Origin: a bacterium | GTDB taxonomy: Bacteria > Desulfobacterota > DSWW01 | Direction of reading: 5' to 3' | Assembly: GCA_028277985.1 (NCBI GenBank) | Contig: JANQFG010000265.1 | Span: 6,832-70,831, forward strand | DNA: 64,000 nt | Notes under the pieces: model-generated | Databases searched by the model: none | What the model was told of the DNA's origin: nothing | The model's input: only the letters and a program-made list of their open reading frames with translations | Shown: piece after piece, positions 1 through 64,000 of the stretch | How the letters are laid out: each line of letters opens with the position of its first letter | How positions within the stretch are numbered: the stretch's first letter is position 1 | Position numbers and translations under genes: made by a program

Positions 1-367
1 TGAGCAGGTCGTTGAACCACATCCCGAAGGCAAGGTCTCCCTCGAAAACGACCGTGCCGTTCATCATCGCCTCCATGAAGGCCTCATCCGTGCCCTTTGT
101 CATGACATCAATGGCGATGGGGATATCGCTGTAGACCATCGCATAGTCCGGGTTCGGGTGGGCGCCGCGGGCGATGCGGAGGGTGCCGTGAGCGATGTGA
201 AAACGCCAGGCAACAGCGTAATCCGAGGTCCTGATTTCCGCAATCCCGTTTCGCTCCCCGAGATCTTCCCTGAAGTCGCGATTCAGGGCCCTTACGAGAC
301 GCATGCTCACCGCGAGGCTCATCAGCATCGCTTCCAATCGTAATCTTTCTTTTAATCCGCTCAGCAT
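1..367 (-). CDS. SCP2 sterol-binding-domain-like protein, C-terminus cut by window edge
   Basis: Minus-strand frame starts at ATG 365-367 with GAGGAGAG about 7 nt upstream and runs off the left edge without a stop, so it is absent from the ORF track. Translation is MLSGLKERLRLEAML...TKGTDEAFMEAMMNGTVVFEGDLAFGMWFNDLL, which shows an SCP2-like terminal pattern. The listed ORF 108..476 is in a different frame and is Arg/Pro-rich. Confidence 0.5.
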   Translation of the reverse strand, partial: MLSGLKERLRLEAMLMSLAVSMRLVRALNRDFREDLGERNGIAEIRTSDYAVAWRFHIAHGTLRIARGAHPNPDYAMVYSDIPIAIDVMTKGTDEAFMEAMMNGTVVFEGDLAFGMWFNDLL

Positions 368-533
368 TCTTCAACTCTCCTCTAGGCAACGTGCGGTTAT
401 CGGTTCCGGAAGAAGCATAGGAAAAAGGTCTCTGTGCGTCAAGCGACCGGTTGTGTGAAGATGAAAGAGCCGGCACCGTTGAGGCACCGGCCCTTTTTGT
501 CTTTGAGGCTAGTTTACACCAGGGTATTCCGTC

Positions 534-1454
534 TTATTGCGCAACGGGTCCGCCCGCGCAAGATCCGCCGCAGGACTCGTCTCCGCCCACGCAGTCGTCG
601 TCCACTCCGTTTCCGCAGATCTCGGGAATGCCCGGATTCACCATCGGATTGTTGTCAACACAATCATCTCCGCCCGTGCACTGGACCCCGGTGTACCCAT
701 CCGCGTCATTGTCGCAGCACTGCGCACCACAGTCGATGGTGTCGTCCGTCCAAAGGATGGAGGTGCCAACACTGACTGCATTGTTCAGGCAGGGAACAAG
801 GGGGAGAGGACCGAAGTTGATGGAAGCACACACGACGGTGAAATAGGTTGCGGCTGCCGGGAGCTTGAGCCTGACCGACTCGAGATAGGCTTGTGAGTAT
901 GTGGCCGTGGCGCCGCAAACGAAATTCCCGCTGACGGGTGTGTCAGCGTCCAAGACCTTTCCATCGGTGGGGGTGGGAGGCATGGGGAGTGAGCCTCCGC
1001 CGGGCAGTGACATGAGGGTCTGCGAAGTCGCCTGGTAAACGCCCAGACCACAATTGTTCCCCGTGTTCGTTCCCGCAGGGTCCAGCTTGATTTTGACGGT
1101 GCCGGAACCGGGGATCGTCTCCGTCTGCGTCACATCGAGATAGGTCATGGTGAATCCGCCCGTGGGCTCTCCCATGCAGCGTACTTCCGATCCGAACAGG
1201 TACCCCACGGCCGGCGGACCGCATTGCGGGTCGGCGGGGTCCCATATGATGGATGTAATCGAATACGCTCCGGGCGTATTGTTCGCGTCCGGGGCATCAT
1301 CAGCGGTTCCCATGAGGAGATCGGCCCCCGGGCCATTTCCTGCATCCGCCGCGTAGGTGAAGTATTCCCATTCGACAGAATTGGCATTTGCCATGGTGAC
1401 CATTGCGAAGACGGTGATAACCGAAAGAAAGCTGAGAAGAAGTCCTCTTTTCAT
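534..1454 (-). CDS. Secreted protein with C-terminal Cys/Asp-rich putative metal-binding (MopE-like) repeats
   Basis: Start trimmed to MKRGLLLSFLSVITVFAMVTMANA, a clear signal peptide with a G-rich SD upstream. The C-terminus reads CCDNDADGYTGVQCTGGDDCVDNNPMVNPGIPEICGNGVDDDCVGGDESC, matching the DCDD..P.A.E.C.NG.DDDC type motif. Confidence 0.7.
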   Translation of the reverse strand: MKRGLLLSFLSVITVFAMVTMANANSVEWEYFTYAADAGNGPGADLLMGTADDAPDANNTPGAYSITSIIWDPADPQCGPPAVGYLFGSEVRCMGEPTGGFTMTYLDVTQTETIPGSGTVKIKLDPAGTNTGNNCGLGVYQATSQTLMSLPGGGSLPMPPTPTDGKVLDADTPVSGNFVCGATATYSQAYLESVRLKLPAAATYFTVVCASINFGPLPLVPCLNNAVSVGTSILWTDDTIDCGAQCCDNDADGYTGVQCTGGDDCVDNNPMVNPGIPEICGNGVDDDCVGGDESCGGSCAGGPVAQ

Positions 1455-1684
1455 GTGTACCCCCCTTTTTGGATGTTCAGCCTGTTCGAAAATCGAGTTG
1501 GTTGGTGTTGCAGTCTCTTCAATGCGGTTGGATTCGCCTGTGATCACCTCCTTTCGGACCGTGGAAAGATGGATTCTGTATAAGGGTCATCCTCCAAGTC
1601 GGAACCGGAGCCCTTTGACGATCGAATTTTATGTATTCGTATTAAAACTATGACTTGGCAGATGAACCTGTGTCAAGAACAATT

Positions 1685-1700
1685 TATTGACCAGTCAATA
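1685..1700. promoter_or_regulatory. 16-bp palindrome TATTGACCAGTCAATA (core TGAC-N2-GTCA), candidate operator
   Basis: Perfect 7-bp arms, read directly in the 450-bp AT-richer leader upstream of the FAD-protein gene at 2002. A third half-site, ATTGACCGG, follows at 1706-1714. Confidence 0.45.
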
Positions 1701-1900
1701 TAGAAATTGACCGGACGGTGGCTTATGGATTTCTTTAATGGAAATAGGTGAATAGGGGGGAGCGTTCGACGGAACCGAAGAGGAAGAACTGGGAGAAATC
1801 CCGTTTTGTTGAGACAGCTTCCTCCGTGGTTGTCGGTTCTCTTCTTGGTGGGCCGGAAAGGAGGGCAGGCTGAATATTGGCCGGCTAACAAGTTTTTTGG

Positions 1901-1911
1901 TTGACCGGTCA
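1901..1911. promoter_or_regulatory. TTGACCGGTCA: perfect 10-bp palindrome TGACCGGTCA overlapping a -35-like TTGACC
   Basis: Read directly, about 90 nt upstream of start codon 2002. It has the same TGAC-N2-GTCA core as 1688-1697, 56134-56143 and 59661-59670. Confidence 0.4.
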
Positions 1912-2001
1912 CTCAATATGGTGTAACTGTAGCATGAGGGCAAGGTCCGTCCGGAAGAGACAACGGGAGAATTGCAGGCTCACTCGAGAGAGGGGGTAAA
2001 C

Positions 2002-4917: not shown

Positions 4918-4961
4918 ATATGCATGAAGTAGATCTGATCCATAAGGGAGGAGGCGTCGAC

Positions 4962-5411
4962 GTGGAGAAAAGACCCAAGGGTTTGTTTGCAGTGGACAAG
5001 TTTTTTGACCGTACGCCGGATGGCCCGGTTCTGGTGGGCTCCCGGTGTACCGAGTGCGGGAAGGTCGCATTTCCCCGGAAGAAAGTGTGCATCAAGTGTT
5101 TTCGAAACGACTGCATGGAGGTGCACCCTCTGTCGAAACGCGGGGAGATCGTGACTTATTCGATCGCTCACATGAGCCACATCGGCATGGCCACGCCGTA
5201 CGCGTTCGGATATGTCTATCTACCTGAAGACAACATAACGATCTACAGCCTGTTCGAAGACTGGGACCCCCCGGAGGAGAAACTGTTCATCGGGCAGCAG
5301 GTCGAACAGTGCGTGGATGTGTTCCGAGAGGATCCATGGGGGAATTCGATTGTCACCTATCTCTATCGGTGTATCGGTACAAAACCGGATTCTCAAGCTG
5401 CCGCGAAGTGA
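4962..5411 (+). CDS. DUF35-type Zn-ribbon/OB-fold protein (thiolase partner)
   Basis: Contains CTECGKVAFPRKKVCIKC, a four-Cys zinc ribbon, followed by an OB-fold-like region, and sits directly upstream of an SCPx-type thiolase. Start placed at GTG 4962, 7 nt after a strong SD AAGGGAGGAGG. ATG 4920 is the alternative start. Confidence 0.75.
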   Translation: MEKRPKGLFAVDKFFDRTPDGPVLVGSRCTECGKVAFPRKKVCIKCFRNDCMEVHPLSKRGEIVTYSIAHMSHIGMATPYAFGYVYLPEDNITIYSLFEDWDPPEEKLFIGQQVEQCVDVFREDPWGNSIVTYLYRCIGTKPDSQAAAK

Positions 5412-5450
5412 AGTCCCGGGAAAAGGACGCGTATCACAGGAGGAGCTGTA

Positions 5451-6638
5451 ATGGGAAGACCAGGAACCGATGTGTACGTCGCGGGCGTCGGGATGACCCG
5501 TTTTGGTATACACATGGACAGGGATATCCGTGATTTGTGCGAAGAGGCGTTCTTCGAGGCGATGGAGGACGCAGGGGCGTATCCGGACGATATCGAGGCC
5601 GGCTACATCGGAACGGTGGGATTTGCGTGGGATGCGCCTATCATGGCGGGACAGATCGCCTTTGAGCAGGTCGGTGTGACAGGGATTCCGATCACACGGA
5701 TCGAGAACGCGTGCGGGAGCGGCTCGAACGCGATCCGTGAGGCATGGCTGGCGGTCAAATCCGGGGAATACGACGTGGCCATGGCAAGCGGAGTGGAGAC
5801 GATGAATCGTCCGCTCCAGGACCAGATTCCTCGGTTCGCCATGTTCGGGGGGGGAGATGCCATGATGGAGGGAACCATGGGCCTGTTCCCGCCCGGGATC
5901 TTTGCGATGGTGGCGCAGCGTTACCTGAACGAAGGGTGGATCACACGGGAGGACATGGGGATCATAGCGGTAAAGAACGCCTATCACGGATCGATGAACC
6001 CGAAAGCCCATTATCAACGGACGTTGACCATGGAGAAGGTGCTGGATGCCCGCATGATTTGCTACCCTCTCGGGCTCCTCGACTGTTGCCCCACCACCGA
6101 CGGCGCAGCCGCTGTCGTCATGTGCTCGGAAGAAGCTTTGCCTCGTTTCCGGAAGCATGCGCCGGTGAGGATACGGGCCCTCACCCAGACTTCGGGCACC
6201 TACTGCGAGGACAATCCGCGGGAATTCACTGCTGACAGCGTGGTGCGAGCAGCAAGGATGGCGTATGAAAAGGCGGAGGTTTCGCCGGAAGACATCGACT
6301 TTGTGGAATGTCACGATTGTTTCACCATGGCCGAAATCGTGCACACCATCGATCTGGGCTTCTGCGAGAGAGAAGAGGTGGGCAGGTTCATTCGGGATGG
6401 AAACACCCAACTAGACGGGAAGATACCTTTCAGCGTGTCCGGCGGCCTGATGAGCAAGGGACATCCACTGGGGGCGACCGGTCCGGGTCAGTATCACGAG
6501 GTGGTCACACAGTTGCGTGGCGAGGCAGGAAAGAGGCAGGTGAAGGATGCTCGGCTCGCTCTGCACGAAAACGGAGGTGGTTTTCGGCACGGCGATACGG
6601 GAATCGTCTGTGTATCCATCCTCGAAAGGGCTGATTGA
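5451..6638 (+). CDS. SCPx/nonspecific-lipid-transfer-type thiolase
   Basis: Motifs DVYVAGVGMTRFG, NACGSGSNAIREAW (nucleophilic Cys), ECHDCFTMAEI and GGLMSKGHPLGATG. SD AGGAGGAG upstream. Confidence 0.9.
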   Translation: MGRPGTDVYVAGVGMTRFGIHMDRDIRDLCEEAFFEAMEDAGAYPDDIEAGYIGTVGFAWDAPIMAGQIAFEQVGVTGIPITRIENACGSGSNAIREAWLAVKSGEYDVAMASGVETMNRPLQDQIPRFAMFGGGDAMMEGTMGLFPPGIFAMVAQRYLNEGWITREDMGIIAVKNAYHGSMNPKAHYQRTLTMEKVLDARMICYPLGLLDCCPTTDGAAAVVMCSEEALPRFRKHAPVRIRALTQTSGTYCEDNPREFTADSVVRAARMAYEKAEVSPEDIDFVECHDCFTMAEIVHTIDLGFCEREEVGRFIRDGNTQLDGKIPFSVSGGLMSKGHPLGATGPGQYHEVVTQLRGEAGKRQVKDARLALHENGGGFRHGDTGIVCVSILERAD

Positions 6639-6662
6639 AGAACCGGGAAGGGGATCGTTCAG

Positions 6663-7088
6663 ATGAACAAAAAGGGCTTTCAGAAGAAGAGCGAGGCGTT
6701 TTTCAAGCGGAACAAGAAGGCGATGGCCAGAGTCGTGCACATGCTGCCGGCCCCGCCCATGATCTACCTGATGTTCGATGTGACCCTGCCTCGGATCGTC
6801 AAGAAGAAAGAGTACAAGAAGTTCAAGGGAACCAAGATGGATTTCCAGTTCACCTTCACCGAGATGCCCGGCAGGAAATCCTGGGTGGTGGACATCGACG
6901 ACGGCAGGGTGCGGGTCTTTCGGGGTGAGAAGGACTATCCCCAGATGGTGATCAACGCCTCGGCCCGCGATTTCGTGGACATGACCACGGGCTACCTTCC
7001 CGAAACCAAGGCAATGCAGTCCGGACGATTGGCCGTGAACGGAGGGCCCGTAACCAAGATGAAGACGGTCATGGGCCTTTTCGGTTGA
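6663..7088 (+). CDS. SCP2 sterol-binding domain protein
   Basis: Contains WVVDIDDGRVRVFRG...INASARDFVDMTTGYL...AMQSGRLAVNGGPVTKMKTVMGLF, a typical SCP2 topology. Confidence 0.7.
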   Translation: MNKKGFQKKSEAFFKRNKKAMARVVHMLPAPPMIYLMFDVTLPRIVKKKEYKKFKGTKMDFQFTFTEMPGRKSWVVDIDDGRVRVFRGEKDYPQMVINASARDFVDMTTGYLPETKAMQSGRLAVNGGPVTKMKTVMGLFG

Positions 7089-7103: not shown

Positions 7104-8213
7104 CTATTTCGATCCTTCCGTAGCCCCCTGGAGCGACTCCATGATGGCCGCGTCGAGGGCCTTGTGATCCCACGGCGGGGAAGGGGCGTCTTCCCGCGGC
7201 TCCATGGAGAGGGCCTCGGACGGGCATGCCGAATTGCAGAGCCCGCATCCGATGCAGCGTTTGAGGTCCACTCGGACGAGCTCGTCTTCAACGGCGAGGG
7301 CGTTCGTCGGGCAGCGTTCCACGCAATCCTCACAGCCGATACATGCCTCTTCGTCAATCTTGAGCCGGTAACTGGACACGGCCCCTATGGACGGCATGTC
7401 CAAATCCTGTAGGCTCTTCACGATCCCGCAGTGGCAGGCGCAGCAGTTGCATATGAAGTCGATGTACTTGGATGTGTTGGAAGACATGTGAACCAGACCA
7501 GCCTCCTCCGCCTCCTCGAGGACCTTGAGCGCCTCCTCCCTGGAAACGAGTTGGCCGTAGCCTCTCTCATCGGCAAACTTGGCGTTGGGTCCGAAGGCCA
7601 TGCAATTCTGCTTCGGCTTTTCGCATGGCTCTCCCAACAATTCGCCATAGTGACGGCAGTAGCAAGTGGACAGGGATATGTACTCCGAGTTCCGGACATA
7701 CTCGGATAGGGCCTGGTAAGGGAGAATCTCGCTTCCGCCTGCAACTTCCTTCTCCACCGGGATCACTCTGGAGAAGGGAGTGATCTTTCGCATGAACTCG
7801 AGGTTTGCGCCCACGGTGAACTCCGACATCTTGTCGAAGTATGCCTTGAACAGGCGGGCCATCTTCTGGTCGTGTTCGGTGGTTCCGCCCTTCATGAACT
7901 GGAACTCGAAGAAACCGGGCAGGACCGCCATCAACTTGTAATGGGGCTTCTCCTTTCGTACCTGGTGGAAGACCAGCCCATTGTCTGCCATGCTCTCCAG
8001 CAAAGGCACGATTTCATCGACAGGCCGATCCGTGTGTTCGCTGATCGCCTCAACGGTCTGCATGCCCAGAGGCATTGCTGCAGCCAGTTCCGCTTCCTCA
8101 GGGTTGAAGAGTGCGCGGATCAGTGCGGTGAACTCATCGCACTTGAAGATCGGGATTGCTCCACCAATCAGCATGAGGTTCTCGATGAGTCTGTCGTATA
8201 CGGTGTCGCTCAT
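7104..8213 (-). CDS. 4Fe-4S dicluster domain protein with extra CNCCACHC cysteine motif
   Basis: Start trimmed to MSDTVYDRL (SD GAGGAG). The C-terminus has CIGCEDCVERCP and CIGCGLCNSACP. Upstream cysteines are STCYCRHYG..PCEKPKQNC and FICNCCACHCG. Confidence 0.75.
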   Translation of the reverse strand: MSDTVYDRLIENLMLIGGAIPIFKCDEFTALIRALFNPEEAELAAAMPLGMQTVEAISEHTDRPVDEIVPLLESMADNGLVFHQVRKEKPHYKLMAVLPGFFEFQFMKGGTTEHDQKMARLFKAYFDKMSEFTVGANLEFMRKITPFSRVIPVEKEVAGGSEILPYQALSEYVRNSEYISLSTCYCRHYGELLGEPCEKPKQNCMAFGPNAKFADERGYGQLVSREEALKVLEEAEEAGLVHMSSNTSKYIDFICNCCACHCGIVKSLQDLDMPSIGAVSSYRLKIDEEACIGCEDCVERCPTNALAVEDELVRVDLKRCIGCGLCNSACPSEALSMEPREDAPSPPWDHKALDAAIMESLQGATEGSK

Positions 8214-38729: not shown

Positions 38730-38735
38730 GGGGGT

Positions 38736-55028: not shown

Positions 55029-55070
55029 GGTGGCTCCTTTCTGACGAAGAGTACCTCGACTGTGGGTCCT

Positions 55071-56003: not shown

Positions 56004-56148
56004 CCTTCGGTATTCGGAATTTATACTATTCGTAACATAGCAGGGGCGGCCTGTCAACAAAAACTATTCATTTTGCAATTTCTTTGATTAAGTAATATAT
56101 TGACATATATATATAAATACACGGTCTTGAGAATGACATGTCATTCTC
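56004..56148. promoter_or_regulatory. Regulatory module copy A: TATTCGGAA/TATTCGTAA boxes, ATATATTGACATATA box, perfect 20-bp palindrome GAGAATGACATGTCATTCTC
   Basis: Blocks lie at 56004-56038, 56094-56108 and 56129-56148. The same blocks, in the same order and with the same spacing, recur at 59533-59675. Confidence 0.7.
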
Positions 56149-56245
56149 ACGACCAACCGAACAGAGGGGGGCTCTGAGACCGAAAATCGGGTGAGATCGG
56201 TTGATTCCGCTCAGGGGCCTTGGATTCCCTTCCCGTGGACCTCTA

Positions 56246-56274
56246 TTGACAGACGGGACAGAAGGCTCTACAAA
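56246..56274 (+). promoter_or_regulatory. Sigma70-like promoter (TTGACA-17-TACAAA)
   Basis: TTGACA (56246-56251), a 17-nt spacer, then TACAAA (56269-56274), about 145 nt upstream of start 56418. Confidence 0.45.
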
Positions 56275-56417
56275 TAGAGCATAGGAAACTTGACCGATGG
56301 GACAATTTTTTCGTTGACCCCCCAATGAAACGGCATGCCGGGGCAAGGGGGTTGGCGAATCATTCGGGGTCCGAGGGTTTCAAATCCCCAATGAGCAGCC
56401 AGGAAGGAGTCGTCACC

Positions 56418-59339
56418 ATGGAAGGACAGATCTTGAACGAGCTGAAGGCGATCGTTGGAGAGGAGAACGTTTCAGAGGGGACCGCCGGAACCCAGCGATT
56501 CCTGCGCCCGGGCTGGGAAACGCCTTTCCTGGTGAGCGTGCGTCCGAAGAAAGACGAAGAAGTGCAAAAGATCGTGGATCTGGCTCGGGAGAATCGAACA
56601 CCGATCGTGACGACGAATGATCGTTATCTCCTTGAAGAAGACCTGGAGAAGGAAGGCATCTTCCTGGATTTTGAATGCATGAATGAGATCGAGGTCATAG
56701 ACGGCTACACGTTGATGGCCCACGTTCAAAGGGGTGTAACCTGGCATCAGCTCAATGAAGCTCTGAGGACCCATGGAATGAAAGCGGCCGCCCCTGTTGC
56801 GGCCAATTCCAATTCCGTGGCGGAATCGCATGCGGCCCGGGTCGTCGGCAAGGCGTCGTCAAAATACTGGGACTATCCTGCCACTAACCTGAGATTGGTG
56901 CTGGCCAATGGTCGGGTTCATCGGACCGGGACCCATGGGTTCAGCGACGAGTCGGACGGCAGAAACGAGGGGGGGCCGAACCTGTCCAACTGGTTCTTCG
57001 GCGCCGATGATGTTCTTGGAGTCATGACCAGGGCCTCCATCATGCTCTGGCCTGTACGTGAGAGTCGTACTTGCCTGGTGTACGGATTCGAAGATGTCGA
57101 TGAAATGCGAAGTGCCATGAAGAATGTTCCCCGCACGGAGCTGGGGGTAGAGTTTGTGGGCATGAACCGGGTCTCCATGGCGAACCTGCTGGGCGGAGAC
57201 CCCCAAGATTATCCTGCCTGGAGCCTGACGATCGGTTTTGACGGACGGGCCAAGCGAGTCGAACACAATACGGATCGAGTGGGCAAGCTCATGCAGAAGT
57301 TCGAGTGCCGGCAGGAAGACCGGCTCGTCGCGCCCATGACCGAGCAGCTGGATCTGCCCTGGATGGAAGCGAGTGACTACCACACGGGTTTCTATGCCCT
57401 CTTCTCCAAGATGAAGGCGCTTGACGCCGAGGTTGACAAGTCATCGGCTGCGGCGGGCCTTTCACCCGAGAAGGTAGGGAAGATCTATTCTTCTTTCGAC
57501 CACGGAAGAGCCGTGTACGCCGTTTATGACTGGTTTTCCGATGATCCGGCCCATGGTTCTGCCATGGACGCTATGAATATGTCCCTGGCAGATCTGGGCG
57601 CTTTCTTTGATCGTTCCCATGGAGAGCTCGGGCGTAAGATCTATACGAGCATTCCGAATCACTTGCCGGTGCTGAAACACATAAAGAAGATGCTCGATCC
57701 CGAAAATGTGATGAATCCGGGTCGCATCATGAAGGAGGAAGATCCGGAGTGGCAGCCCCTCGAGACCGGAAACGGCGAAATCGGATTGACGGTCTCCAAT
57801 ATAGAAGAGGTCAAGAACAAGCTGGCTGAATGTGTCGGCCAGGAGTGGGTGAGCAACAACCCGGTCGACCTGAGCGCCTACGGCCGGGATTTCACCATCT
57901 TCTCCGGTGAGCGACCGAACATTGCGGTTCTACCCCGGACCACCGAAGAGGTCCAGGCCGTTATCCGGACGGCTTATGAACATGGCATCCCGGTGGTTCC
58001 CCTGACTTCGGGATTCAATCATGGAGGCCTGGCCATTACCCGCAAGGGCGGCATCCTCATCGATCTCAAGCGTATGGCTGACCTGATGTCCTTTGACGAG
58101 GAGGCCATGTCCGTCTCGATAGGCCCTGGGATCCGGATGCGCTCGCTCTGGTGGGAATCGGTACGACGCAGAGCGTACGAAGATTTTCATTTGAAACCGA
58201 TTCTGCCGCTGACGCTGGGCAGTGTATCGCTCCTGTCGAACTATGTCTCCCGTGGAGGAGCCGGCTCCCTGTTCAAGTACGGGTTGAACCCCGAGTTGAC
58301 GGCCGGCATGACCTGGGTGCTGCCGAATGGCGAGGTGTTGAAGGTCGGTCCGAGCGCTGTGCCGAATGTGGGGAACCTTCCCCTCCACTTCACGCCGGGT
58401 CCGGATTTGTGCGGTATGTTCTTCAATGCGGACGGCATGTTGGGTGTTTGCACCGAGTTGACGGCAAAGCTCTATCCGGAGAAGGACAATGCCGCGGATT
58501 TCGAGGATTACGTGACTGCAGCCAACTATGATCCGGATTTTCATCATGCCTTCAGCCAGACAGTCAAGGCCATTCATGAAATCGGCCAGGAGAACATAAC
58601 CGACTTCATCTACAAGGCCCATCCCGGCCTCTTCGCCCTGGCAATGGCTGAAATGTTTGAAGAGGTGACCGTCTCGAGCGCTATCAACGTGGCCCCGCAA
58701 CATCCTGTCTCGTCGGTGGTCAGCGGGTATGATGAAGAAGAGCTGGAAATCAAGAAGGAGATCGTGGCCGAGATCGTCCAGAAATATGGGCTCATGGTGA
58801 TTGATCCCGCCATGTTCGGCGAAGGATTGGCGGAAGCGCAATCAACCGATACCACGAAGATGAGTCTCGGAATCAAGGACAACTATGTGGGAGCTTACAA
58901 GGGGGCGTTCCAGTGGACCGCCTGCAACCTGAGGATGGACAAGATTCCGGAATTCGCGCGGAGGTATGATCAGCTGGTGCAGAAATACTGGAAGACCTCT
59001 GATCCGAAGATTTCCGTGGAGCACGCCATGACCGGAACGGACATTCAGGGACCCCTTCCATTTGCACGGGCGGGAGGTATCGAGGTGGACTTCTGGTGGG
59101 ACCAGGGCAACCCGGAAGAGGTGAAAAGAGCAACCACCATGATGCACAAGACCCAGAAGCTCATGCTGGAATTCGGAGGGGCCCTCTTTCGAAACATGTT
59201 CGGCGCAGGTGAATACCATATGCCGCTCTGGGGCAAAGTAAGTGAGTACTACAATATCTTGAAGGACACGAGAAAGGCCTTTGATCCGGCCAACCTCATG
59301 CACCCGGACGTGTTGCCGTCTACGGACGACTATATCTAG
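56418..59339 (+). CDS. Internally duplicated VAO/PCMH-type FAD-binding oxidoreductase (paralog 3, 973 aa)
   Basis: ATG 56418 (SD AGGAAGGAG). Reads MEGQILNELKAIVGEENVSEG and is very similar to paralog 2 across long blocks. C-terminus reads HPDVLPSTDDYI. Confidence 0.85.
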   Translation: MEGQILNELKAIVGEENVSEGTAGTQRFLRPGWETPFLVSVRPKKDEEVQKIVDLARENRTPIVTTNDRYLLEEDLEKEGIFLDFECMNEIEVIDGYTLMAHVQRGVTWHQLNEALRTHGMKAAAPVAANSNSVAESHAARVVGKASSKYWDYPATNLRLVLANGRVHRTGTHGFSDESDGRNEGGPNLSNWFFGADDVLGVMTRASIMLWPVRESRTCLVYGFEDVDEMRSAMKNVPRTELGVEFVGMNRVSMANLLGGDPQDYPAWSLTIGFDGRAKRVEHNTDRVGKLMQKFECRQEDRLVAPMTEQLDLPWMEASDYHTGFYALFSKMKALDAEVDKSSAAAGLSPEKVGKIYSSFDHGRAVYAVYDWFSDDPAHGSAMDAMNMSLADLGAFFDRSHGELGRKIYTSIPNHLPVLKHIKKMLDPENVMNPGRIMKEEDPEWQPLETGNGEIGLTVSNIEEVKNKLAECVGQEWVSNNPVDLSAYGRDFTIFSGERPNIAVLPRTTEEVQAVIRTAYEHGIPVVPLTSGFNHGGLAITRKGGILIDLKRMADLMSFDEEAMSVSIGPGIRMRSLWWESVRRRAYEDFHLKPILPLTLGSVSLLSNYVSRGGAGSLFKYGLNPELTAGMTWVLPNGEVLKVGPSAVPNVGNLPLHFTPGPDLCGMFFNADGMLGVCTELTAKLYPEKDNAADFEDYVTAANYDPDFHHAFSQTVKAIHEIGQENITDFIYKAHPGLFALAMAEMFEEVTVSSAINVAPQHPVSSVVSGYDEEELEIKKEIVAEIVQKYGLMVIDPAMFGEGLAEAQSTDTTKMSLGIKDNYVGAYKGAFQWTACNLRMDKIPEFARRYDQLVQKYWKTSDPKISVEHAMTGTDIQGPLPFARAGGIEVDFWWDQGNPEEVKRATTMMHKTQKLMLEFGGALFRNMFGAGEYHMPLWGKVSEYYNILKDTRKAFDPANLMHPDVLPSTDDYI

Positions 59340-59532
59340 GGATCATCTTTGCGGTGGACGGCGTGCCTGAATACATCTGCTCGGTGCGTTCATCGTGACT
59401 CAGTGGTTTCACGGCCCCTGGGTCTCCAAAGACTCCCTGGCCGCGATTCGCTGAACCATCTCGAACAGAATCGGTGGACGGCAGGCTCTCGGTGCCGAAA
59501 AGCCATGGAAATCGAGCACCTACCTTCCTTTT

Positions 59533-59675
59533 CCTTCGGTATTCGGAAATTATAGGTTCCGTAACATGTGCGTGATCCCTGCCTACAGAATCCGTATATC
59601 TGATTCTATTGAGTTTAATTAATATATTGACATATAAAAGAAAATGGACCATCATGAGAATGACATGTCATTCTC
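59533..59675. promoter_or_regulatory. Regulatory module copy B, ending in the identical 20-bp palindrome (59656-59675)
   Basis: CCTTCGGTATTCGGAAATTATAGGTTCCGTAACAT at 59533-59567, AATATATTGACATATA around 59621-59636, and GAGAATGACATGTCATTCTC at 59656-59675, directly upstream of the TetR gene. Confidence 0.7.
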
Positions 59676-59699
59676 ATGAGCGTGAAAGGGATGGATAGG

Positions 59700-60335
59700 A
59701 TGAAGCCGGAATACAGACGAAAACAGATCATGGAGGTCGCAAAGAAGGTCTTTGCGGCGAACGGGTACCACAAGACGAATATCGAGATGATCTGCAAGAA
59801 GGCAGGGACCGGCAGGGGAACGATCTATCGTTATTTCAAGAACAAGGAAGCGATCTTCGCCGTAATCCTGGAAGAGAACCTCGAGGACATGAACCGGCAG
59901 ATGATCGATGGATATGAATTCAGATCGCTCCTCTTTGACACCAAGGAGGAACTGGTGAACGCCTATGTGGAGAGCCTGGAACGGCTCCTGACCTTCATAC
60001 TCGCAGATCGTGACTTCGCAAGGATCGCGCTGGATGTGTCATCCGGTGAAAGCAAACGATTTACACAGATCCGTCAAGAGTATGAACGGAAGAATATTTC
60101 CCTGATCAAGACGATGATGGACCAGTGGAAATGCAACGAGTTCGTGAGAGAGGACCTGGATACGGAGCTGGCGGCCATCCGGCTGAGTGGGGCCATGGAA
60201 AAGATCGCCAGGACCTATCTGTTCGAGAAGAAGAAGAAGTTTGACAAGCAGGAGATCCGGGCCCTGGCGGAGAAGAACGCGGAAATCGACCTTCACGGGA
60301 TGCTCGTGCCCGAGTGCCGGGCCTCCCACGGCTGA
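59700..60335 (+). CDS. TetR/AcrR-family transcriptional regulator
   Basis: Reads MKPEYRRKQIMEVAKKVFAANGYHKTNIEMICKKAGTGRGTIYRYFKNKEAIF, an HTH region. ATG 59676 abuts the palindrome, so I prefer ATG 59700, which lies 9 nt after GAAAGGG. Confidence 0.85.
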   Translation: MKPEYRRKQIMEVAKKVFAANGYHKTNIEMICKKAGTGRGTIYRYFKNKEAIFAVILEENLEDMNRQMIDGYEFRSLLFDTKEELVNAYVESLERLLTFILADRDFARIALDVSSGESKRFTQIRQEYERKNISLIKTMMDQWKCNEFVREDLDTELAAIRLSGAMEKIARTYLFEKKKKFDKQEIRALAEKNAEIDLHGMLVPECRASHG

Positions 60336-60368
60336 TCTCGACTCTCCAATCTTCAAGGAGACGGAACC

Positions 60369-61283
60369 ATGAGTTCAGATCCTCTCGATCAGCGCCCAAG
60401 AAGAACGCAAGCCAAACCGCCTCCGCCCAGGATCAAGCAGGACCTATGTACCGGCTGCGGGCTCTGCTCCTCTGTTTGTGTGGTGATGGAAAAACGGAAC
60501 CGGAAGGTGGTCATCACGAGGCCCGAACTCTGCATCCGTTGTGGCCATTGTGGATCGATCTGTCCGTCGCGTGCGATCGTTGGGCCGTCGGTGGAGCCAA
60601 AGCGACTGACGGATCGGGCCCGCGCCGTCGCACCCTCTGCTGCTTCCCTTCAGTTTCTTCTTCGATCCCGAAGGTCTGTCCGGCGATACAAGCGGAAACC
60701 GATCAGCAGGAAGGATATGGACAAGATACTCGAGGCCGGCAGGTATACGCCCACGGGCACGAACACCCAGGGCATCGAGTACATAGTGATCACGGACCCG
60801 AACAAGATAGCGGAGCTGCGAGAGATGACCATGCCGGCCGTGATCCGGCTGTTCGGTATGGCGGTGCGCGTCTCCAAGATCCCGGTCCTGTCCGATTTTC
60901 TCCTGGGCGACCAAGCAGCGGACAACTTCCAGAAGATCTACACGCCTGCACTCAAGGCGATTGATGCATATACCCAGCGAGGTGACGACAGGCTCTTCTA
61001 TCACGCGCCGGCCATCATGCTGGTGCACGGTGAGAAGCTGGATGATATGGCCTTTTCCTGCTCGGCGGCCCTGTTCAGCTGCTACCTGATGGCCCATACG
61101 CTGGGTGTCGGGTGTTGCCTGAACGGGTTTCTGGTTCTGGCGGCCAACCGCGACCCGAAGGTGAAGAAATGGCTGGGTATACCCAGACAGCACAAGTGCC
61201 ACGCTGCCATGACCCTGGGTTACCAGGATGTGAAGTACAACCACCTGGTCAAGCGAAACCCGGCCAGGGTCAGATGGATATGA
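60369..61283 (+). CDS. Ferredoxin (2x[4Fe-4S]) fused to nitroreductase-family flavoprotein
   Basis: Contains CTGCGLCSSVCV...CIRCGHCGSICP, then LLRSRRSVRRYKRKPISRKDMDKILEAGRYTPTGTNTQG. Confidence 0.8.
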   Translation: MSSDPLDQRPRRTQAKPPPPRIKQDLCTGCGLCSSVCVVMEKRNRKVVITRPELCIRCGHCGSICPSRAIVGPSVEPKRLTDRARAVAPSAASLQFLLRSRRSVRRYKRKPISRKDMDKILEAGRYTPTGTNTQGIEYIVITDPNKIAELREMTMPAVIRLFGMAVRVSKIPVLSDFLLGDQAADNFQKIYTPALKAIDAYTQRGDDRLFYHAPAIMLVHGEKLDDMAFSCSAALFSCYLMAHTLGVGCCLNGFLVLAANRDPKVKKWLGIPRQHKCHAAMTLGYQDVKYNHLVKRNPARVRWI

Positions 61284-61317
61284 AGGTTCTCGTATGACCC
61301 ATTGGGGGGCATGAGTC

Positions 61318-62655
61318 ATGGAAGAAGACAAAGATCTCGGGCGGGTGTTGGAGATTCACGAGGCACTGAGGGAAATATCCCGGCTCTGGGTCCAGGGCGA
61401 GGACTGGGAAGAGGCGGCGGCGGAGCGTCTGAGGGAGGAAGCCGTACTGCTGAACCACAGACGGTACTTCAGGAGCATTCCCGCCTATCGCGCGGTGGCG
61501 GAGGATGCGGGGTTGGGGGAGGATATTCCGGACACAGAGGTCATCAAGACCGATCTCATGTTCGCTACGGACATTTTCAAATCTTATGATCCGGTGCTCA
61601 TAGACAACGCAGAGTGGCAGGAGATGACAAGTTGGCTGAAAACCGTCTTCACCGGGGACCTGCCGGGCGATTATTCAGACGTGAAGAATCTCGAGGAATG
61701 GATTGAAAGGCTCACGGCAGCGGAACTCAATATCATGACCAGCAGCGGAACCTCGGGTCAGTACTCGTTCGTCCCACGGGACAACAACACCCGGATGGGC
61801 CTCATGATGAATTCCGCGCTCGTGTTTCAACCTTTTTTCGGGAAGGTTCTCGAGAACATATCCGAATACGACGCAGCGATCATGAATTTCAAGGGCGGTT
61901 CCGCCGGCGTCCAGGCTGCCAGCAACAGCATCGCCAACATCGTGCAGCACTCTTACTGTCTTTACGACATGGTCATGCCCGCTGACGCGGTGCGGATTCT
62001 TCAAAGAGGACCGAGAAACGACGAGGAAAGGACCTTCATCGACGAATTCGACCGGGTGATGACCAGGGAAAAGGATCAAAGGTACGAGGTGATGCTGGAC
62101 AACATCCGTGCCTCTCTGAAGAACGGGCAGAAGATCCTGATGCAGAGCGCCTGCTATCAGCTGAAGGAGCTCTGCAAGAAGGCGGTGGAGCAGGGGGGGC
62201 TGATCTTGCCTGAAGGAAGCATCCTCCTGTTTGGGGGAGGGTGGAAGACCTTCGAGGGCGAGAAGATGGAGAAGTCGGAGTTGATCGATTTGATCGAAGC
62301 GGCCTTCGGCTTGAAGGGAGAGAGTGCGGTCGAGGGCTACTCCATGATCGAGATGAACACGATGATGACCTGCTGCAGCCAGGCCAGATTTCACATCCCT
62401 CCGTTGATGGAGCCGATCGTTTTCGATGAAGATCTGACGCCCATAGACGGAACCGGTACGGCAGGGATATTCGGCTTTCTGGATCCCTTTGCCCTGTCCT
62501 ACCCGGGATTTCTCGTCTCCGGAGATGAAATCCGTCTCTGGCATGGGGACTGCCCGTGCGGGAGAAAGGGATATGCCATCGACGGGGAGATCCGGAGGGT
62601 GGCCGGGAAGGAAGTGAAAGGATGTGGAGGCATTATGGCTTCGGTGAAGGCATAG
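61318..62655 (+). CDS. LuxE/PaaK-like adenylate-forming acyl-protein/acyl-CoA synthetase
   Basis: Contains TSSGTSGQYSFVPRD, a P-loop-like AMP motif, and a C-terminal CPCGRKGYAIDGEIRRVAGKEVKGCG. It sits next to a LuxC-like gene. Confidence 0.55.
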   Translation: MEEDKDLGRVLEIHEALREISRLWVQGEDWEEAAAERLREEAVLLNHRRYFRSIPAYRAVAEDAGLGEDIPDTEVIKTDLMFATDIFKSYDPVLIDNAEWQEMTSWLKTVFTGDLPGDYSDVKNLEEWIERLTAAELNIMTSSGTSGQYSFVPRDNNTRMGLMMNSALVFQPFFGKVLENISEYDAAIMNFKGGSAGVQAASNSIANIVQHSYCLYDMVMPADAVRILQRGPRNDEERTFIDEFDRVMTREKDQRYEVMLDNIRASLKNGQKILMQSACYQLKELCKKAVEQGGLILPEGSILLFGGGWKTFEGEKMEKSELIDLIEAAFGLKGESAVEGYSMIEMNTMMTCCSQARFHIPPLMEPIVFDEDLTPIDGTGTAGIFGFLDPFALSYPGFLVSGDEIRLWHGDCPCGRKGYAIDGEIRRVAGKEVKGCGGIMASVKA

Positions 62656-62664
62656 CCGGGAGAC

Positions 62665-64000
62665 ATGACATTGTCCACCATTGAGGATCTTTGCCGGGAG
62701 CATGATCTCCTCGTTTTGGGGCAGGACGGTATCGTAAGGATCCCTTTCCTGGTGAAAGGGACCCTGCGGGTGCCCCCGGTGGTGGGAATGAGCAGAATCC
62801 AGGAGGCTTTTTCAGCCAAGGAAGGTGCGACCGGAAGACCTGCGAATGCAGTGACCACGGTCCGCCTGGAAGACGCACAGGTGCTCAGGGAGCCCGTGAT
62901 CGACCGGGACACCATGAGAGTGACGGACGAGTTCATCTATCAGGTTCTCCCGGTATTTGATCCGGAGGAGCTGATCGAACAGGATCTCGACCGCGTAGTA
63001 AACGAGCTCTATAATCTGCCCTTCGAGCATGTCTTGGACTTTCTGGGCAGGGTTTCCTCCGCCCTGTCATCTTGCCCGGAACGCCTGGAGGCCCTGCAGC
63101 AACTGTTCAGGCACACAGCGACCGTAGCAGACCTCTACATAGATTTCTCCTTTGCGAGCCTCGGGGTTCTGCTGAATCCGGAATCCGCCAGGGAGATGGT
63201 AGATCGTGAGCTCTCGAGTTTCGGCATCCAGGGCTCTCGTTTCATGGATTCCTGGGTAGAGGTTTCGGACAACAGCATGGGGGGGCTGTCTGAGGAGTTG
63301 TCGCCCACGGAAGCGCAGGAGACTTCCGGGGATTGCACGAGCCCGGAGAAGATGTATCTCAGAGCCATGCCGACCCGACAGCTGCATCTCACTGCAGGGA
63401 ACGCTCCGGCGATCCCCATTATCTCCACGGCAAGAGCCATCAGTCTCAAATCCCCTGCGGTCATTAAATCCCCTTACGGAGCCACGTTGGGGGGAGCGTT
63501 GGTGAGCCTGGCTGCTTGTGCCGTTGCGCCCGATCATCCGAGCGTCCGGAACCTTTCCATCGTCTACTGGCCGGGGGGAGACGAGAGAGTGGAAGACGTC
63601 TTTTTTCGTCCGAACGCCTTTGACAGGATCGTGGTATGGGGAGCCCCCGACGCAGTCGAAAGCGTGAAATCCCGTGCCATGTTCACGAAGCTCATCACCC
63701 TGAACCCCCGGTACGGAATGAGCTGGATCGGCAGGGAAGCGTTCGAGAGCGACGACTTCATGGAAGCTGCCAGACGTGGCGCCGTGGACACGATGATCTG
63801 GAATCAGAAGGCCTGCATCGCTTCCTCGGTGCACTACGTGGAAGGGGATGAAAATCAGGTCAGGGCGTATGCGCAGGCCCTTCAGAAGGAGCTCGCCGAA
63901 TGGGACCGGATTGCTCCGAATTTTCTCGACCCTGCGGCCCAGGGTCAGATCCGCAGGCTGCGTCGCGGGAAACTGCTCAATGCCGAATGGATGGTCAACA
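62665..64000 (+). CDS. LuxC-like acyl-CoA/acyl-protein reductase (aldehyde-forming), 3' end cut by window edge
   Basis: I translated by hand 445 codons from ATG 62665 and found no stop. The gene is absent from the ORF track because it has no stop in the window. Contains RQLHLTAGNAPAIPIISTARAISLKSPAVIKSPYG and NQKACIASSVHYVEG. Confidence 0.6.
   Translation, partial: MTLSTIEDLCREHDLLVLGQDGIVRIPFLVKGTLRVPPVVGMSRIQEAFSAKEGATGRPANAVTTVRLEDAQVLREPVIDRDTMRVTDEFIYQVLPVFDPEELIEQDLDRVVNELYNLPFEHVLDFLGRVSSALSSCPERLEALQQLFRHTATVADLYIDFSFASLGVLLNPESAREMVDRELSSFGIQGSRFMDSWVEVSDNSMGGLSEELSPTEAQETSGDCTSPEKMYLRAMPTRQLHLTAGNAPAIPIISTARAISLKSPAVIKSPYGATLGGALVSLAACAVAPDHPSVRNLSIVYWPGGDERVEDVFFRPNAFDRIVVWGAPDAVESVKSRAMFTKLITLNPRYGMSWIGREAFESDDFMEAARRGAVDTMIWNQKACIASSVHYVEGDENQVRAYAQALQKELAEWDRIAPNFLDPAAQGQIRRLRRGKLLNAEWMVN

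Follow-up and report, generated by a model that had tools for sequence, protein, structure and literature searches.

A conserved island of flavin and iron–sulfur enzyme genes in a Desulfobacterota genome and its possible role in the anaerobic transformation of polyunsaturated hydrophobic compounds

Gene content of the island

The stretch of DNA analysed here, 64,000 nt in length and hereafter called the window, comes from a bacterium of the Desulfobacterota lineage DSWW01 (GenBank assembly GCA_028277985.1, contig JANQFG010000265.1, positions 6,832 to 70,831 of the forward strand) and carries an island of redox and lipid-handling genes that may serve the anaerobic transformation of a hydrophobic, polyunsaturated compound. 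Genes were called as open reading frames (ORFs) guided by third-position G+C (GC3), and families were assigned with Pfam and NCBIfam. The window has a G+C content of ~58% across its length and holds ~41 genes, ~33 of which are of redox, lipid-carrier/lipid-handling or beta-oxidation type (table 1). Its families include three tandem-VAO proteins (~970 aa each), three tandem fusions of a CrtI/CrtISO-like domain with Fer4_20 and Pyr_redox_2, five stand-alone CrtI-like proteins, one geranylgeranyl-reductase (GGR)-like protein, two OYE + Pyr_redox_2 iron–sulfur (Fe-S) flavoenzymes, an aldehyde:ferredoxin oxidoreductase (AOR) with a Fer4_11 partner, one molybdenum/tungsten (Mo/W) bis-pyranopterin guanine dinucleotide (bisPGD) enzyme, two SnoaL/NTF2 proteins, three SDRs, a long acyl-CoA dehydrogenase (ACAD), a DUF35 protein with an SCPx-type thiolase and SCP2, an RND pump, and MarR and TetR regulators. 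Pfam and NCBIfam found no domains of oxygenases, crotonase/MaoC, AMP-binding ligases, CoA-transferases, benzoyl-CoA reductases, glycyl-radical enzymes or carboxylases in the window. An initial annotation of the same DNA had counted about 30 redox or beta-oxidation-type genes and no oxygenase; both statements stand, and every family that it listed was reproduced by the two databases.

The three fusion proteins (g12–g14) consist of two flavoprotein halves. The N-terminal half is a CrtI-fold FAD domain, for which the best model is carotenoid isomerase (TIGR02730), aligned over 1-492 of 493 at 285.8 bits, under the equivalog cut-off of 586.9 bits; in a search of the PDB it matches CrtD and CrtI at E 1e-17. 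The C-terminal half contains Fer4_20, with eight Cys invariant in 13 sequences (C553, 556, 561, 565, 600, 604, 610, and 614), and the dinucleotide motifs GAGPAG and GGGSVA, so that each whole fusion has three dinucleotide motifs. Its PDB matches are NfnB, DPD, and GltD (E 1e-66 to 1e-44), and it possesses the features of their electron-input module, namely the eight Cys and the FAD and NAD(P)H motifs. On the model of DPD and the putative isoprene reductase IsrA, electrons may pass from NAD(P)H to FAD, through two [4Fe-4S] clusters to the second FAD, and on to a C=C bond. The three paralogues are 55-58% identical to one another versus 70-84% to orthologues in other genomes and, because the orthologues are closer than the paralogues, the triplication appears to be old and maintained. 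The family comprises at least 998 clusters across several phyla, with few source names, all of them generic (“phytoene dehydrogenase-like,” “FAD-dependent oxidoreductase”). The gene also occurs alone, without the island, in one Deltaproteobacteria metagenome-assembled genome (MAG; CP070770, L083) and one Actinomycetota MAG (L002), which argues that the fusion is a self-sufficient enzyme; these solitary contexts offer no clue to its function. A literature search yielded neither a description of this fusion architecture nor a characterized member.

The tandem-VAO proteins (g3, g32, and g36) likewise have two halves, and in g3 a degenerate N-terminal half is followed by a catalytic-type C-terminal half (24% identity between halves, E 4e-15). 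All three belong to the VAO/PCMH family by virtue of the FAD_binding_4 fold and a Gly-rich pyrophosphate loop; this FAD loop, with the invariant sequence GFNHGG, is found in the C-half only, and the N-half has the fold without the loop. The AlphaFold2 (AF2) model of the tandem protein has a predicted template-modeling score (pTM) of 0.87, and its top Foldseek matches are single VAO/PCMH-fold proteins at 16-20% identity (TM score 0.65-0.76, normalized to the target). The fused form is rare, with ~65 clusters at 90% identity and four at 50%, and a sensitive search recovered separate N-half-like (~440 aa) and C-half-like (~515 aa) proteins that are commoner than the fused form. Because such split relatives exist, the window proteins are best seen as fusions of a two-subunit enzyme.

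The Mo/W enzyme g33 (719 aa) falls in the Fdh/Psr/acetylene-hydratase clade of the dimethyl sulfoxide (DMSO) reductase family, in accord with its Fe4S4, Molybdopterin, and Molydop_binding domains and an N-terminal CxxCxxxC...C motif. No twin-arginine translocation (Tat) motif was seen by eye in its sequence and no beta or gamma subunit genes were found. Residue D137 aligns to the metal-ligand position, which is Cys in PsrA and Sec in Fdh; the Asp is invariant in 19 relatives and is predicted to ligate the metal, which would be unusual for its clade. Enzymes of the NarG and ethylbenzene-dehydrogenase types typically have an Asp ligand, and the similarity of g33 to EbdA is a local match of 32 bits only. 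Assignment of g33 as a steroid C25/C26 dehydrogenase (type II DMSO reductase, alpha-beta-gamma) was rejected, given its 719 aa versus ~950 aa for the Tat-exported alpha subunit and the lack of a beta (4-cluster) or gamma (haem b) subunit. The fusion, fused tandem-VAO, and Mo/W families all carry generic names only, and no characterized member of any of them was found.

Among the other CrtI-like proteins, g16 scores 338.6 bits with TIGR02734 (crtI_fam), above the cut-off of 238.1, and its residues 9-500 align with Pantoea CrtI (4dgk) at E 4.4e-64; by these measures it is a genuine CrtI homologue. It stands outside a carotenoid-biosynthesis context: neither the window nor the gene tables of the related loci described below contain an SQS_PSY or polyprenyl synthase domain. 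Two adjacent pairs, g15/g16 and g20/g21, are divergent paralogues. Covalent flavinylation of the CtmAB type was rejected, the motif G-F-[LR]-x-[NS]-[TL]-H-A being missing from the N-termini of g10, g12-g16, g20, g21, and g31; a relaxed pattern (G-[FYW]-x3-4-H-A), applied to the complete sequences, gave one match, off-position in the GltD half of g13. The GGR-like g11 aligns full length (1-297) with TIGR02032 (GG-red-SF) at 128.3 bits, under the cut-off of 158.8, and similarity to KstD in the window is limited to the Rossmann motif. Directly after g16 lies a 53-aa ORF (27985-28146; MGFILAVFKWVVLIAVAYYTFKIV...) with a hydrophobic stretch that by eye resembles a single transmembrane segment, and which may be a membrane anchor for the CrtI-like pair.

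Both OYE proteins, g18 and g34, have the FadH/BaiCD-type architecture of Oxidored_FMN, an interdomain 4-Cys cluster motif (CxxCCxC...C at 352-369 in g18; CxxCxxxC...C at 343-362 in g34), and Pyr_redox_2. The BaiCD model gives 546 bits for g34 and ~394 bits for g18, below its cut-off of 825. The AFOR_N and AFOR_C domains of g23 score 275 and 347 bits in Pfam, and its PDB matches (1aor at 6e-120, AorB 8c0z at 3e-98, and BamB 4z3w at 1e-77 over part of the length) indicate that it is a true tungsten-type AOR. A BamB-type class II benzoyl-CoA reductase was rejected, since g23 is of AOR type and no Hdr-like or Nuo-like genes are in the window. Within g4-g6, a BbsA-like model scores 75 bits and the thiolase model PRK06064 374 bits, both under cut-offs. 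The SDR g25 is a paralogue of g26 (138 nt at 72% identity), but its SDR match ends at about residue 195 of 285 and the C-terminus may have diverged or decayed.

The true starts of g12 (15845), g10 (12825), g36 (56418), and g33 (53047) lie downstream of those of the longest ORFs. No tRNA genes were found in the window, and Rfam at the gathering threshold gave no match in it, including the ~270-nt leader of g36. The island continues past both window ends, where g1 (left) and the LuxC-like g40 (right) are cut; g40 and the LuxE-like g39 are a possible activation or aldehyde-forming pair. Near the left end, g2 has an N-terminal hydrophobic segment that suggests secretion and a Cys/Asp-rich C-terminus with a MopE-type metal-binding motif. 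The related loci contain no orthologue of g2, which probably has nothing to do with the island.

Table 1. Genes and candidate regulatory sites of the window
Feature	Position	Strand	Remarks
g1, truncated SCP2-like protein (~145 aa)	2-367	-	weak SCP2 match, E 0.009
g2, putatively secreted Cys-rich protein	534-1547	-	
g3, tandem-VAO flavoprotein, 971 aa	2002-4917	+	two FAD_binding_4 matches
g4-g6, DUF35/ChsH2-type OB protein, SCPx-type thiolase, SCP2 carrier	4920-7088	+	Pfam/NCBIfam
g7, Fe-S protein	7104-8324	-	C-terminal 2x[4Fe-4S]; N-terminus winged-helix-like
g8, TrkA-type K+ channel; CBS protein (10382-10906, -); g9, lactate permease	8602-12515		
g10, CrtI-like flavoprotein	12825-14273	+	crtI_fam 109 bits, under cut-off
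g11, GGR-like flavoprotein	14349-15554	-	GG-red-SF model
Fusion-operon promoter and candidate MarR-type operator	15740-15810	+	TTGACAAT then TACGAAATTGGTA; inverted partner 15795-15807
g12-g14, three CrtISO-like + 2x[4Fe-4S] + FAD/NAD(P)H (GltD/NfnB-like) fusions	15845-24691	+	
g15 (CrtI-like, 529 aa), g16 (CrtI-type, 503 aa), 53-aa ORF (27985-28146)	24744-28146	+	
Candidate MarR promoter/operator and MarR gene g17 (28287-28802)	28160-28802	+	TTGACAAT...TACGAAAATGGTA at 28177
g18, OYE + Pyr_redox_2 Fe-S flavoenzyme (FadH/BaiCD class)	28857-30917	+	
g19, DUF362 + 2x[4Fe-4S] (Fer4)	31007-32083	+	
g20, g21, adjacent divergent CrtI-like flavoproteins	32092-34808	+	
g22, polyferredoxin (Fer4_11); g23, tungsten-type AOR	34809-37211	+	
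g24, SnoaL_2	37238-37627	+	
g25, SDR	37872-38729	+	
g26, SDR paralogous to g25	38802-39752	+	
g27, g28, RND pump (membrane-fusion protein and AcrB-type transporter)	39734-44158	+	
g29, SnoaL_4	44175-44600	+	
g30, long ACAD	44715-46559	+	Acyl-CoA_dh_C tail
Leftward string g31-g35	46740-55892	-	FAD protein, tandem-VAO, Mo/W-bisPGD, OYE + Pyr_redox_2 (g34), SDR (g35)
g31, 355-aa FAD protein	46740-47807	-	Rossmann FAD motif only and weak Amino_oxidase match
g32, tandem-VAO	47846-50809	-	
g33, cytoplasmic Mo/W-bisPGD enzyme	50888-53047	-	predicted Asp ligand
Divergent promoter region with candidate TetR-type operator	56000-56152	+	perfect 20-nt palindrome 56129-56148
g36, third tandem-VAO paralogue	56418-59339	+	~270-nt leader ahead
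Second promoter/operator copy	59530-59679	+	palindrome 59656-59675
g37, TetR; g38, Fer4 + nitroreductase; g39, LuxE-like; g40, LuxC-like (cut)	59676-63999	+	
g39, LuxE-like adenylating enzyme	61318-62655	+	
g40, LuxC-like acyl-CoA reductase	62665-window end	+	cut by window end

Conservation of the gene set and its promoters

The window was compared with the gene tables of eight related loci (L081, L082, and L084–L089), each sampled over ±10 kb, and by a tblastn matrix. Core genes recur in reshuffled order in at least seven other assemblies and make up ~15 orthologous groups, comprising the fusions, two CrtI-like proteins, the GGR-like protein and its Fe-S partner, MarR, an OYE/Fe-S flavoenzyme, DUF362, AOR, SnoaL_4, the SCP2-like protein, tandem-VAO proteins, and the cytoplasmic Mo/W enzyme. 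Orthologues of g1, g3/g32/g36, g7, g11-g19, g21-g23, g29, and g33 are found in L081 and L084–L089 and are mostly 63-93% identical to the window proteins, the DUF362 gene of L087 being only 36% identical to its counterpart. Matches to the fusion, tandem-VAO, and Mo/W proteins fall on contigs of equal length in ~10 assemblies, and the Mo/W gene lies on the same contigs as fusion or VAO genes. The nearest species-representative genome is an uncultured Thermodesulfobacteriota MAG (L001), in which the fusion is 82% identical, and L087 derives from the core metagenome of the Chocolate Pots hot spring (PMC6137239). Recurring membership despite changed order and orientation implies a functionally linked set, and the comparison supports the view that the genes form a functional unit and not a chance neighborhood. 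The initial annotation had named a lack of co-conservation as an outcome that would speak against an island, and this was not borne out.

L081 and L082 share the order GGR-like (on the minus strand), fusion, fusion, CrtI-518, CrtI-503, small ORF, MarR, OYE, and DUF362 at 78-93% identity, with the Fe-S partner of the GGR-like protein, an SDR, and a further CrtI-like gene upstream. Three fusions, CrtI-518, CrtI-503, the small ORF, MarR, and OYE follow one another in L084, and the trio of g15, g16, and the 53-aa ORF is thus kept in all three of these loci. The longest series is that of L085: DUF1329, DUF1302, long ACAD, Fe-S, SCP2-like, CrtI, Fe-S, GGR, fusion, CrtI-518, MarR, Fer4_11, AOR, SnoaL_4, and SCP2. 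L086 has a long ACAD, Fe-S, two ACADs, SCP2-like, tandem-VAO, a 353-aa FAD protein (33% identical to g31), BKACE, Fe-S, GGR, and two fusions, and L087 has DUF362, CrtI-518, tandem-VAO, two FadL/TodX, CrtI-like, OYE, CrtI-503-like, and long ACAD. In L088 and L089 a long ACAD, DUF1302, DUF1329, and a fusion are divergent from the Mo/W enzyme and SnoaL_4; L088 continues with a nitroreductase like g38 (45% identical), an SDR, a CrtI like g21, AOR, another SDR, and SnoaL_4. The related loci therefore encode outer-membrane proteins of the FadL/TodX and DUF1302/DUF1329 types. Adjoining the island in L088 is an HpaB/4-hydroxybutyryl-CoA-dehydratase-family protein (13197-14687), and L089 has a MoxR-type AAA/VWA/CbiA set and a 911-aa prismane-like Fe-S protein (15448-22157); these extra genes may be additional components or maturation factors.

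Individual neighborhoods are preserved as well. A ~145-aa gene in five related loci is 66-79% identical to g1 and adjoins the pair of long ACAD and Fer4-268 in L085, L086, L088, and L089. The GGR-like g11 has orthologues of 77-85% identity in L081, L085, and L086, where the adjoining 367-aa gene is 75-85% identical to g7. Orthologues of g18 and g19 are present in L081, L084, and L087; the g22/g23 pair (78-82%) and g29 (74%) have counterparts in L085; and g21 is 71% identical to a gene adjoining the AOR gene in L088. Long ACADs recur in L085, L086, L088, and L089 at ~41-44% identity and also in the L087 gene table. Neither an oxygenase nor a prenyl, phytoene, or squalene synthase was found in the window or in any related locus.

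The genes at 8602-12515 (K+ channel, CBS protein, and lactate permease) have no orthologue in any related locus and, by this comparison, are unrelated passenger genes outside the conserved set. They separate the GGR-like gene from its Fe-S partner, its direct neighbor in other assemblies. The lactate permease gene is flanked by two copies of an exact 16-nt sequence, AACAGCTTCATCCAAG, at 10508-10523 and, inverted, at 12620-12635; because the GGR-like and Fe-S partner genes are adjacent in other assemblies, these repeats may mark an insertion or inversion that imported the passenger genes.

Two regulatory sequences are shared between promoters. The perfect 20-nt palindrome GAGAATGACATGTCATTCTC occurs exactly twice in the window, at 56129 in the divergent promoter region of g35/g36 and at 59656, where it abuts the TetR gene, and none of 100 shuffles gave any match. 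About 150 nt around the palindrome are duplicated, including a TTGACATATA -35 box. A palindromic operator found both at the promoter of the regulator and at that of a target gene is the mark of a TetR-controlled operon, and TetR is accordingly predicted to bind both. A leader of ~270 nt (56150-56417) separates the candidate TetR operator from the likely start of g36.

The MarR-type motif TACGAAATTGGTA lies just downstream of a TTGACAAT box at 15762 (fusion operon) and at 28177 (MarR gene). The form common to these promoters is TACGAA(A/T)TTGGTA, with an inverted partner at 15795. In the window alone the motif would be only suggestive, but it is also found at the orthologous promoters of L081/L082 (fusion and MarR) and of L084, L085, and L086 (fusion), as well as at the ACAD promoter of L086 (3 mismatches) and the CrtI/ACAD divergent promoter of L087. 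In all, five assemblies keep it at orthologous promoters, and there are 8 matches in 159 kb of related loci versus 4 matches in 1.25 Mb of unrelated loci. It was not found at the divergent fusion/Mo-W promoters of L088 and L089, and the Mo/W gene therefore cannot be placed in the MarR regulon. A third candidate operator, the motif TTGACCAGTCAA / TTGACCGGTCAC, is present in two copies at 1683-1912 (+) upstream of g3, and the same pair precedes the orthologous tandem-VAO gene in L086. Shared operator sequences are thus present in the island, as had been claimed together with MarR and TetR control, and it is likely that the two repressors bind them.

A consensus scan of 27.9-47.8 kb gave 12 promoter-like sites versus 6.6 ± 2.5 in shuffled sequence, and 19 terminator-like sites versus 13.8 ± 3.7, a modest excess that does not delimit operons. 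Between g24 and g25 there is a very stable hairpin (37700-37781; 34-nt arms, RNA dG -57 kcal/mol, z -7.4) followed by a short U run, which could be a terminator, an attenuator, or an element like the repetitive extragenic palindromes (REP). Its flanks (TGAGGGGGCAGGCC ... GGCACGGGCACGGA) recur without the hairpin core in the g12/g13 intergenic region (18753-18830). A short GGC/AGT-rich repeat, AGTGGCAAGTGGCAGGTGGCGAGTGGC, lies just after g24 (37633-37659) and, inverted, after g30 (46646-46672).

Proposed function and alternatives

We favor, with about even confidence, the reading that the window represents most of an inducible multi-operon module of an anaerobic Thermodesulfobacteriota member, directed at a hydrophobic polyunsaturated compound that most probably has an acyclic isoprenoid or polyene chain. 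The anoxic setting, also proposed by the initial annotation, is upheld because the nearest genome is a Thermodesulfobacteriota MAG, the AOR is tungsten-type, Fe-S modules are numerous, and no oxygenase is present. A lipophilic substrate is suggested by the two SCP2-type proteins, the RND pump, and the outer-membrane proteins of related loci, and an acyclic polyprenyl or polyene chain by the island-specific families (g16 CrtI, the CrtISO-like fusions, and the GGR-like protein). Of the lipophilic unsaturated or polycyclic substrate originally envisaged, the lipophilic part therefore holds and acyclic polyene families are present, whereas nothing specific to polycyclic or steroid rings was found in the window (no three-subunit Mo enzyme of the S25DH type). 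The SCPx-type thiolase, DUF35 protein, and SCP2, seen in the window only, and the long ACADs would suit acyl-CoAs that are bulky or branched. The substrate, reaction direction, and activation step proposed here are predictions from these families.

The module might work as follows, with C=C reduction or desaturation driven by NAD(P)H or ferredoxin and then aldehyde oxidation and chain shortening akin to beta-oxidation. Without ligand, the MarR and TetR repressors would occupy the operators at the main operon promoters. In related genomes FadL/TodX or DUF1302/DUF1329 outer-membrane proteins would contribute uptake; SCP2-type carriers would hold the substrate and the RND pump would expel any excess. 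The fusions, acting like DPD, would use NAD(P)H to reduce the FAD of the GltD/NfnB-like half, with two [4Fe-4S] clusters passing the electrons on to the FAD of the CrtISO/RetSat-like half, which would saturate or isomerize a C=C bond; that there are three anciently diverged paralogues suggests three different double-bond positions. Further isolated or conjugated double bonds could be reduced by the GGR-like enzyme with its Fe-S partner and by the two OYE/Fe-S flavoenzymes, and the CrtI-type proteins could desaturate or isomerize. Water-dependent hydroxylation or hydration might be the task of the tandem-VAO enzymes and of the Mo/W enzyme with its predicted Asp ligand; together with the SDRs, these would produce an alcohol and then an aldehyde, which AOR would convert to the acid. 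After activation by the LuxE-like enzyme, or by a ligase encoded outside the window, the long ACAD, SDRs, SCPx-type thiolase with DUF35, and possibly NTF2-type or FAD-type hydratases would shorten the chain.

Several points weigh against this reading. No window protein reaches an equivalog-level cut-off in NCBIfam, and every activity is therefore extrapolated from superfamily membership. An enoyl-CoA hydratase, a classical CoA ligase or transferase, and a carboxylase that could deal with beta-methyl branches are all missing from the window, so that a complete degradation route cannot be drawn. These absences had been listed by the initial annotation and the listed domains were indeed not found, but it overlooked the LuxE-like g39 and LuxC-like g40, as it did the passenger nature of the genes at 8.6-12.5 kb and the truncation of the island; with a LuxE-like enzyme present and the island cut at both ends, the absence is weaker than it looks. 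The only candidates for the gaps are the FAD-type or NTF2-type hydratases and the LuxE-like enzyme. Relatives of CrtI, CrtISO, and GGR are usually biosynthetic, and steroid-ring chemistry would suit the OYE/Fe-S flavoenzymes, NTF2 proteins, and SDRs just as well. The fusion may reduce C=C bonds, or its C-half may only keep the flavin reduced for an isomerization of the CrtISO type. The VAO C-half is as similar to 4-alkylphenol oxidases as to D-2-hydroxyacid dehydrogenases, a hint of a phenolic or hydroxy-acid intermediate that the proposed scheme does not predict. Finally, several genes did not turn up within the ±10 kb sampled at each related locus, namely the thiolase trio (g4-g6), g24-g28 (including the RND pump), TetR, and the LuxE/LuxC pair; their place in the island is less certain.

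The predicted C=C reducers (three fusions, the GGR-like protein, and two OYE proteins) make up the conserved core, which would suit a purely reductive role, and sequence does not decide between that role and a catabolic one. A reductive “biohydrogenation” without carbon assimilation, in which unsaturated lipids are an electron sink or are detoxified, the saturases are the end point, and ACAD, thiolase, and AOR serve other roles, would agree with the solitary fusion genes of other genomes, with an efflux pump and MarR/TetR control typical of detoxification, and with the missing hydratase, ligase, and carboxylase; isoprene reduction of the IsrA type has been proposed as such an electron-accepting process (PMC10134865). 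We consider it fairly unlikely, as the long ACAD (~41-44%) and its Fe-S partner, the SCP2-like protein, and AOR recur in related loci, suggesting carbon-chain processing, and cytoplasmic NADPH-driven reduction by itself conserves no energy. Another reading is that the island makes or remodels isoprenoid lipids of the host itself, for example hydrocarbons, membrane isoprenoids, or the saturated side chains of quinones. The classically biosynthetic character of the CrtI, CrtISO, and GGR families would suit this, as would the closeness of g16 to CrtI, a LuxC/LuxE-type pair that could make fatty aldehydes, and the stand-alone fusion genes among housekeeping genes of other lineages. It is nevertheless quite improbable, since phytoene/squalene synthase, prenyltransferase, cyclase, and glycosyl- or acyl-transferase genes are missing from the window and the eight related loci, and ligand-type repressors, an efflux pump, FadL/TodX and DUF1302/1329 porins, ACADs, thiolase, and AOR point to an exogenous substrate.

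A Bai-like transformation of steroids, hopanoids, or other polycyclic compounds would assign the reduction of ring enones to the OYE/Fe-S enzymes, the oxidation or epimerization of hydroxyls to the SDRs, isomerase or dehydratase functions to the NTF2 proteins, and side-chain removal to thiolase, DUF35, SCP2, and ACAD. All of these proteins are in the window (two SnoaL, three SDRs, DUF35 with SCPx-type thiolase and SCP2, and the long ACAD), g34 and g18 score 546 and ~394 bits with the BaiCD model, the sterol 5-beta-reductase IsmB belongs to the same Fe-S flavoenzyme superfamily (bioRxiv 10.64898/2025.12.29.696961), and sterol side chains in Sterolibacterium are attacked by a CrtI-like desaturase and a Mo hydroxylase (PMC11061730). 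Yet neither BaiCD score reaches the 825-bit cut-off; BaiB/BaiF, a three-subunit Mo enzyme of the S25DH/S26DH type, and a MaoC-type ChsH hydratase are all missing; KstD likeness extends to the Rossmann motif only; and none of the window CrtI-like proteins has the covalent-flavin motif that CtmAB shares with the delta-24 desaturase. The most conserved core (fusions, CrtI-type pair, and GGR-like protein) moreover belongs to families known for acyclic polyprenyl chains, and we regard polycyclic specificity as unlikely. Fortuitous adjacency of unrelated oxidoreductase genes would be in keeping with the passenger genes at 8.6-12.5 kb and with the failure of the thiolase trio, RND pump, and TetR operon to appear in the sampled flanks, but is very improbable indeed in view of ~15 orthologous groups that recur in other orders in at least seven assemblies and of promoter motifs that are common and conserved.

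The favored reading makes the island an anaerobic catabolic or transforming set for hydrophobic compounds that is built from known superfamilies, and three of its families have no characterized member that could be found. The claim that it is undescribed is supported, in that no equivalog-level match was found and the literature search, which covered the fusion architecture, bacterial enzymes like retinol saturase, and the anaerobic degradation of squalene or carotenoids, returned no paper on this system. For monoterpenes and sterols, anaerobic routes have been described in denitrifiers; for carotenoids, squalene, phytol-type chains, or other polyunsaturated isoprenoids in sulfidic or methanogenic sediments, we know of no such enzymes and the literature search found none. 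It is conceivable, if doubtful, that the island is a first genetic handle on the O2-independent enzymatic hydrogenation and breakdown of polyunsaturated isoprenoids, in which the fusions would be NADPH-driven (conceivably electron-bifurcating) polyene saturases, accompanied by a fused two-subunit VAO-type enzyme and a cytoplasmic Asp-ligand Mo/W enzyme, a water-dependent hydroxylase or hydratase. Candidate substrates would then be carotenoids, squalene, polyprenyl chains, and possibly sterol side chains, and candidate hosts relatives of sulfate reducers in sediments and mats. If true, this would explain in biological terms why unsaturated lipids are hydrogenated so rapidly during early diagenesis in anoxic sediments; rapid lipid hydrogenation in young anoxic sediments has long been seen by geochemists (Gaskell and Eglinton 1975, as cited in PMC12179283). 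The island supplies testable candidates in the form of an NAD(P)H/Fe-S/flavin “saturase” family, a rare fused VAO-type enzyme, and a distinct Mo/W family, and its repressors and operators might serve as biosensors in a search for the inducer. Whatever the substrate, the fusion family is a widespread oxidoreductase class.

Comparison with known systems

The Bai system and the FadH, BaiCD, BaiH, IsmB, and BilR enzymes resemble the island in its two OYE + Pyr_redox_2 proteins with a Cys cluster, two NTF2-fold proteins, SDRs, and transporter. The island differs in the absence of a BaiB ligase and BaiF transferase, in its sub-cut-off scores, and in having fusions, CrtI, GGR, and VAO proteins without a bai counterpart. 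Relative to the VAO/PCMH family (PCMH, eugenol oxidase, D-lactate dehydrogenase, and GlcDE), both halves of the tandem-VAO proteins match FAD_binding_4 and the C-half keeps the FAD loops, but these proteins join two diverged copies covalently, lack a cytochrome or CCG Fe-S partner, and are <20% identical to any solved member.

With the CrtI/CrtISO/RetSat family the likeness is one of sequence, g16 passing crtI_fam and the fusion N-half aligning end to end with carotenoid isomerase, whereas the island lacks CrtB, CrtE, and CrtY, its host is anaerobic, and the fusions reach 286 versus 587 bits. Limonene dehydrogenase CtmAB and the delta-24 steroid desaturase are CrtI-like flavoenzymes that act on isoprenoids anaerobically (PMC11061730). 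They parallel the island in forming adjacent divergent CrtI-like pairs that are O2-independent and are followed, in those systems, by alcohol, aldehyde, acid, CoA, and beta-oxidation steps; a Mo enzyme is also involved in the sterol pathway (PMC11061730). The island CrtI-like proteins differ from them in lacking G-F-[LR]-x-[NS]-[TL]-H-A, and g33 is a monomeric cytoplasmic enzyme of the Fdh/Psr clade in contrast to the alpha-beta-gamma type II enzyme.

The closest parallels to the fusions are IsrA and DPD. IsrA, a putative isoprene reductase of Acetobacterium wieringae, has a GltD/NfnB-like module fused in one large polypeptide to a domain that is proposed to act anaerobically in the reduction of an unactivated or conjugated alkene, and its homologues often adjoin TetR genes (PMC10134865). 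Its extra domain is an uncharacterized region of ~270 aa, with additional Fe-S sites and the linked Ni chaperones HypA/HypB, whereas that of the island proteins is CrtISO-like and no Hyp genes are present; what the two have in common is a GltD/NfnB-like module coupled to a separate, putatively alkene-reducing domain in one polypeptide. In DPD the partner of the GltD/NfnB module is a DHODH-like FMN domain, in contrast to the CrtISO/CrtI-fold FAD domain of the fusions, and the order is reversed, the catalytic domain of the fusions being N-terminal. DPD and the fusions nevertheless share the Fer4_20/FAD/NAD(P)H module, covalently joined to a second flavin domain, for which C=C reduction is predicted in the fusions.

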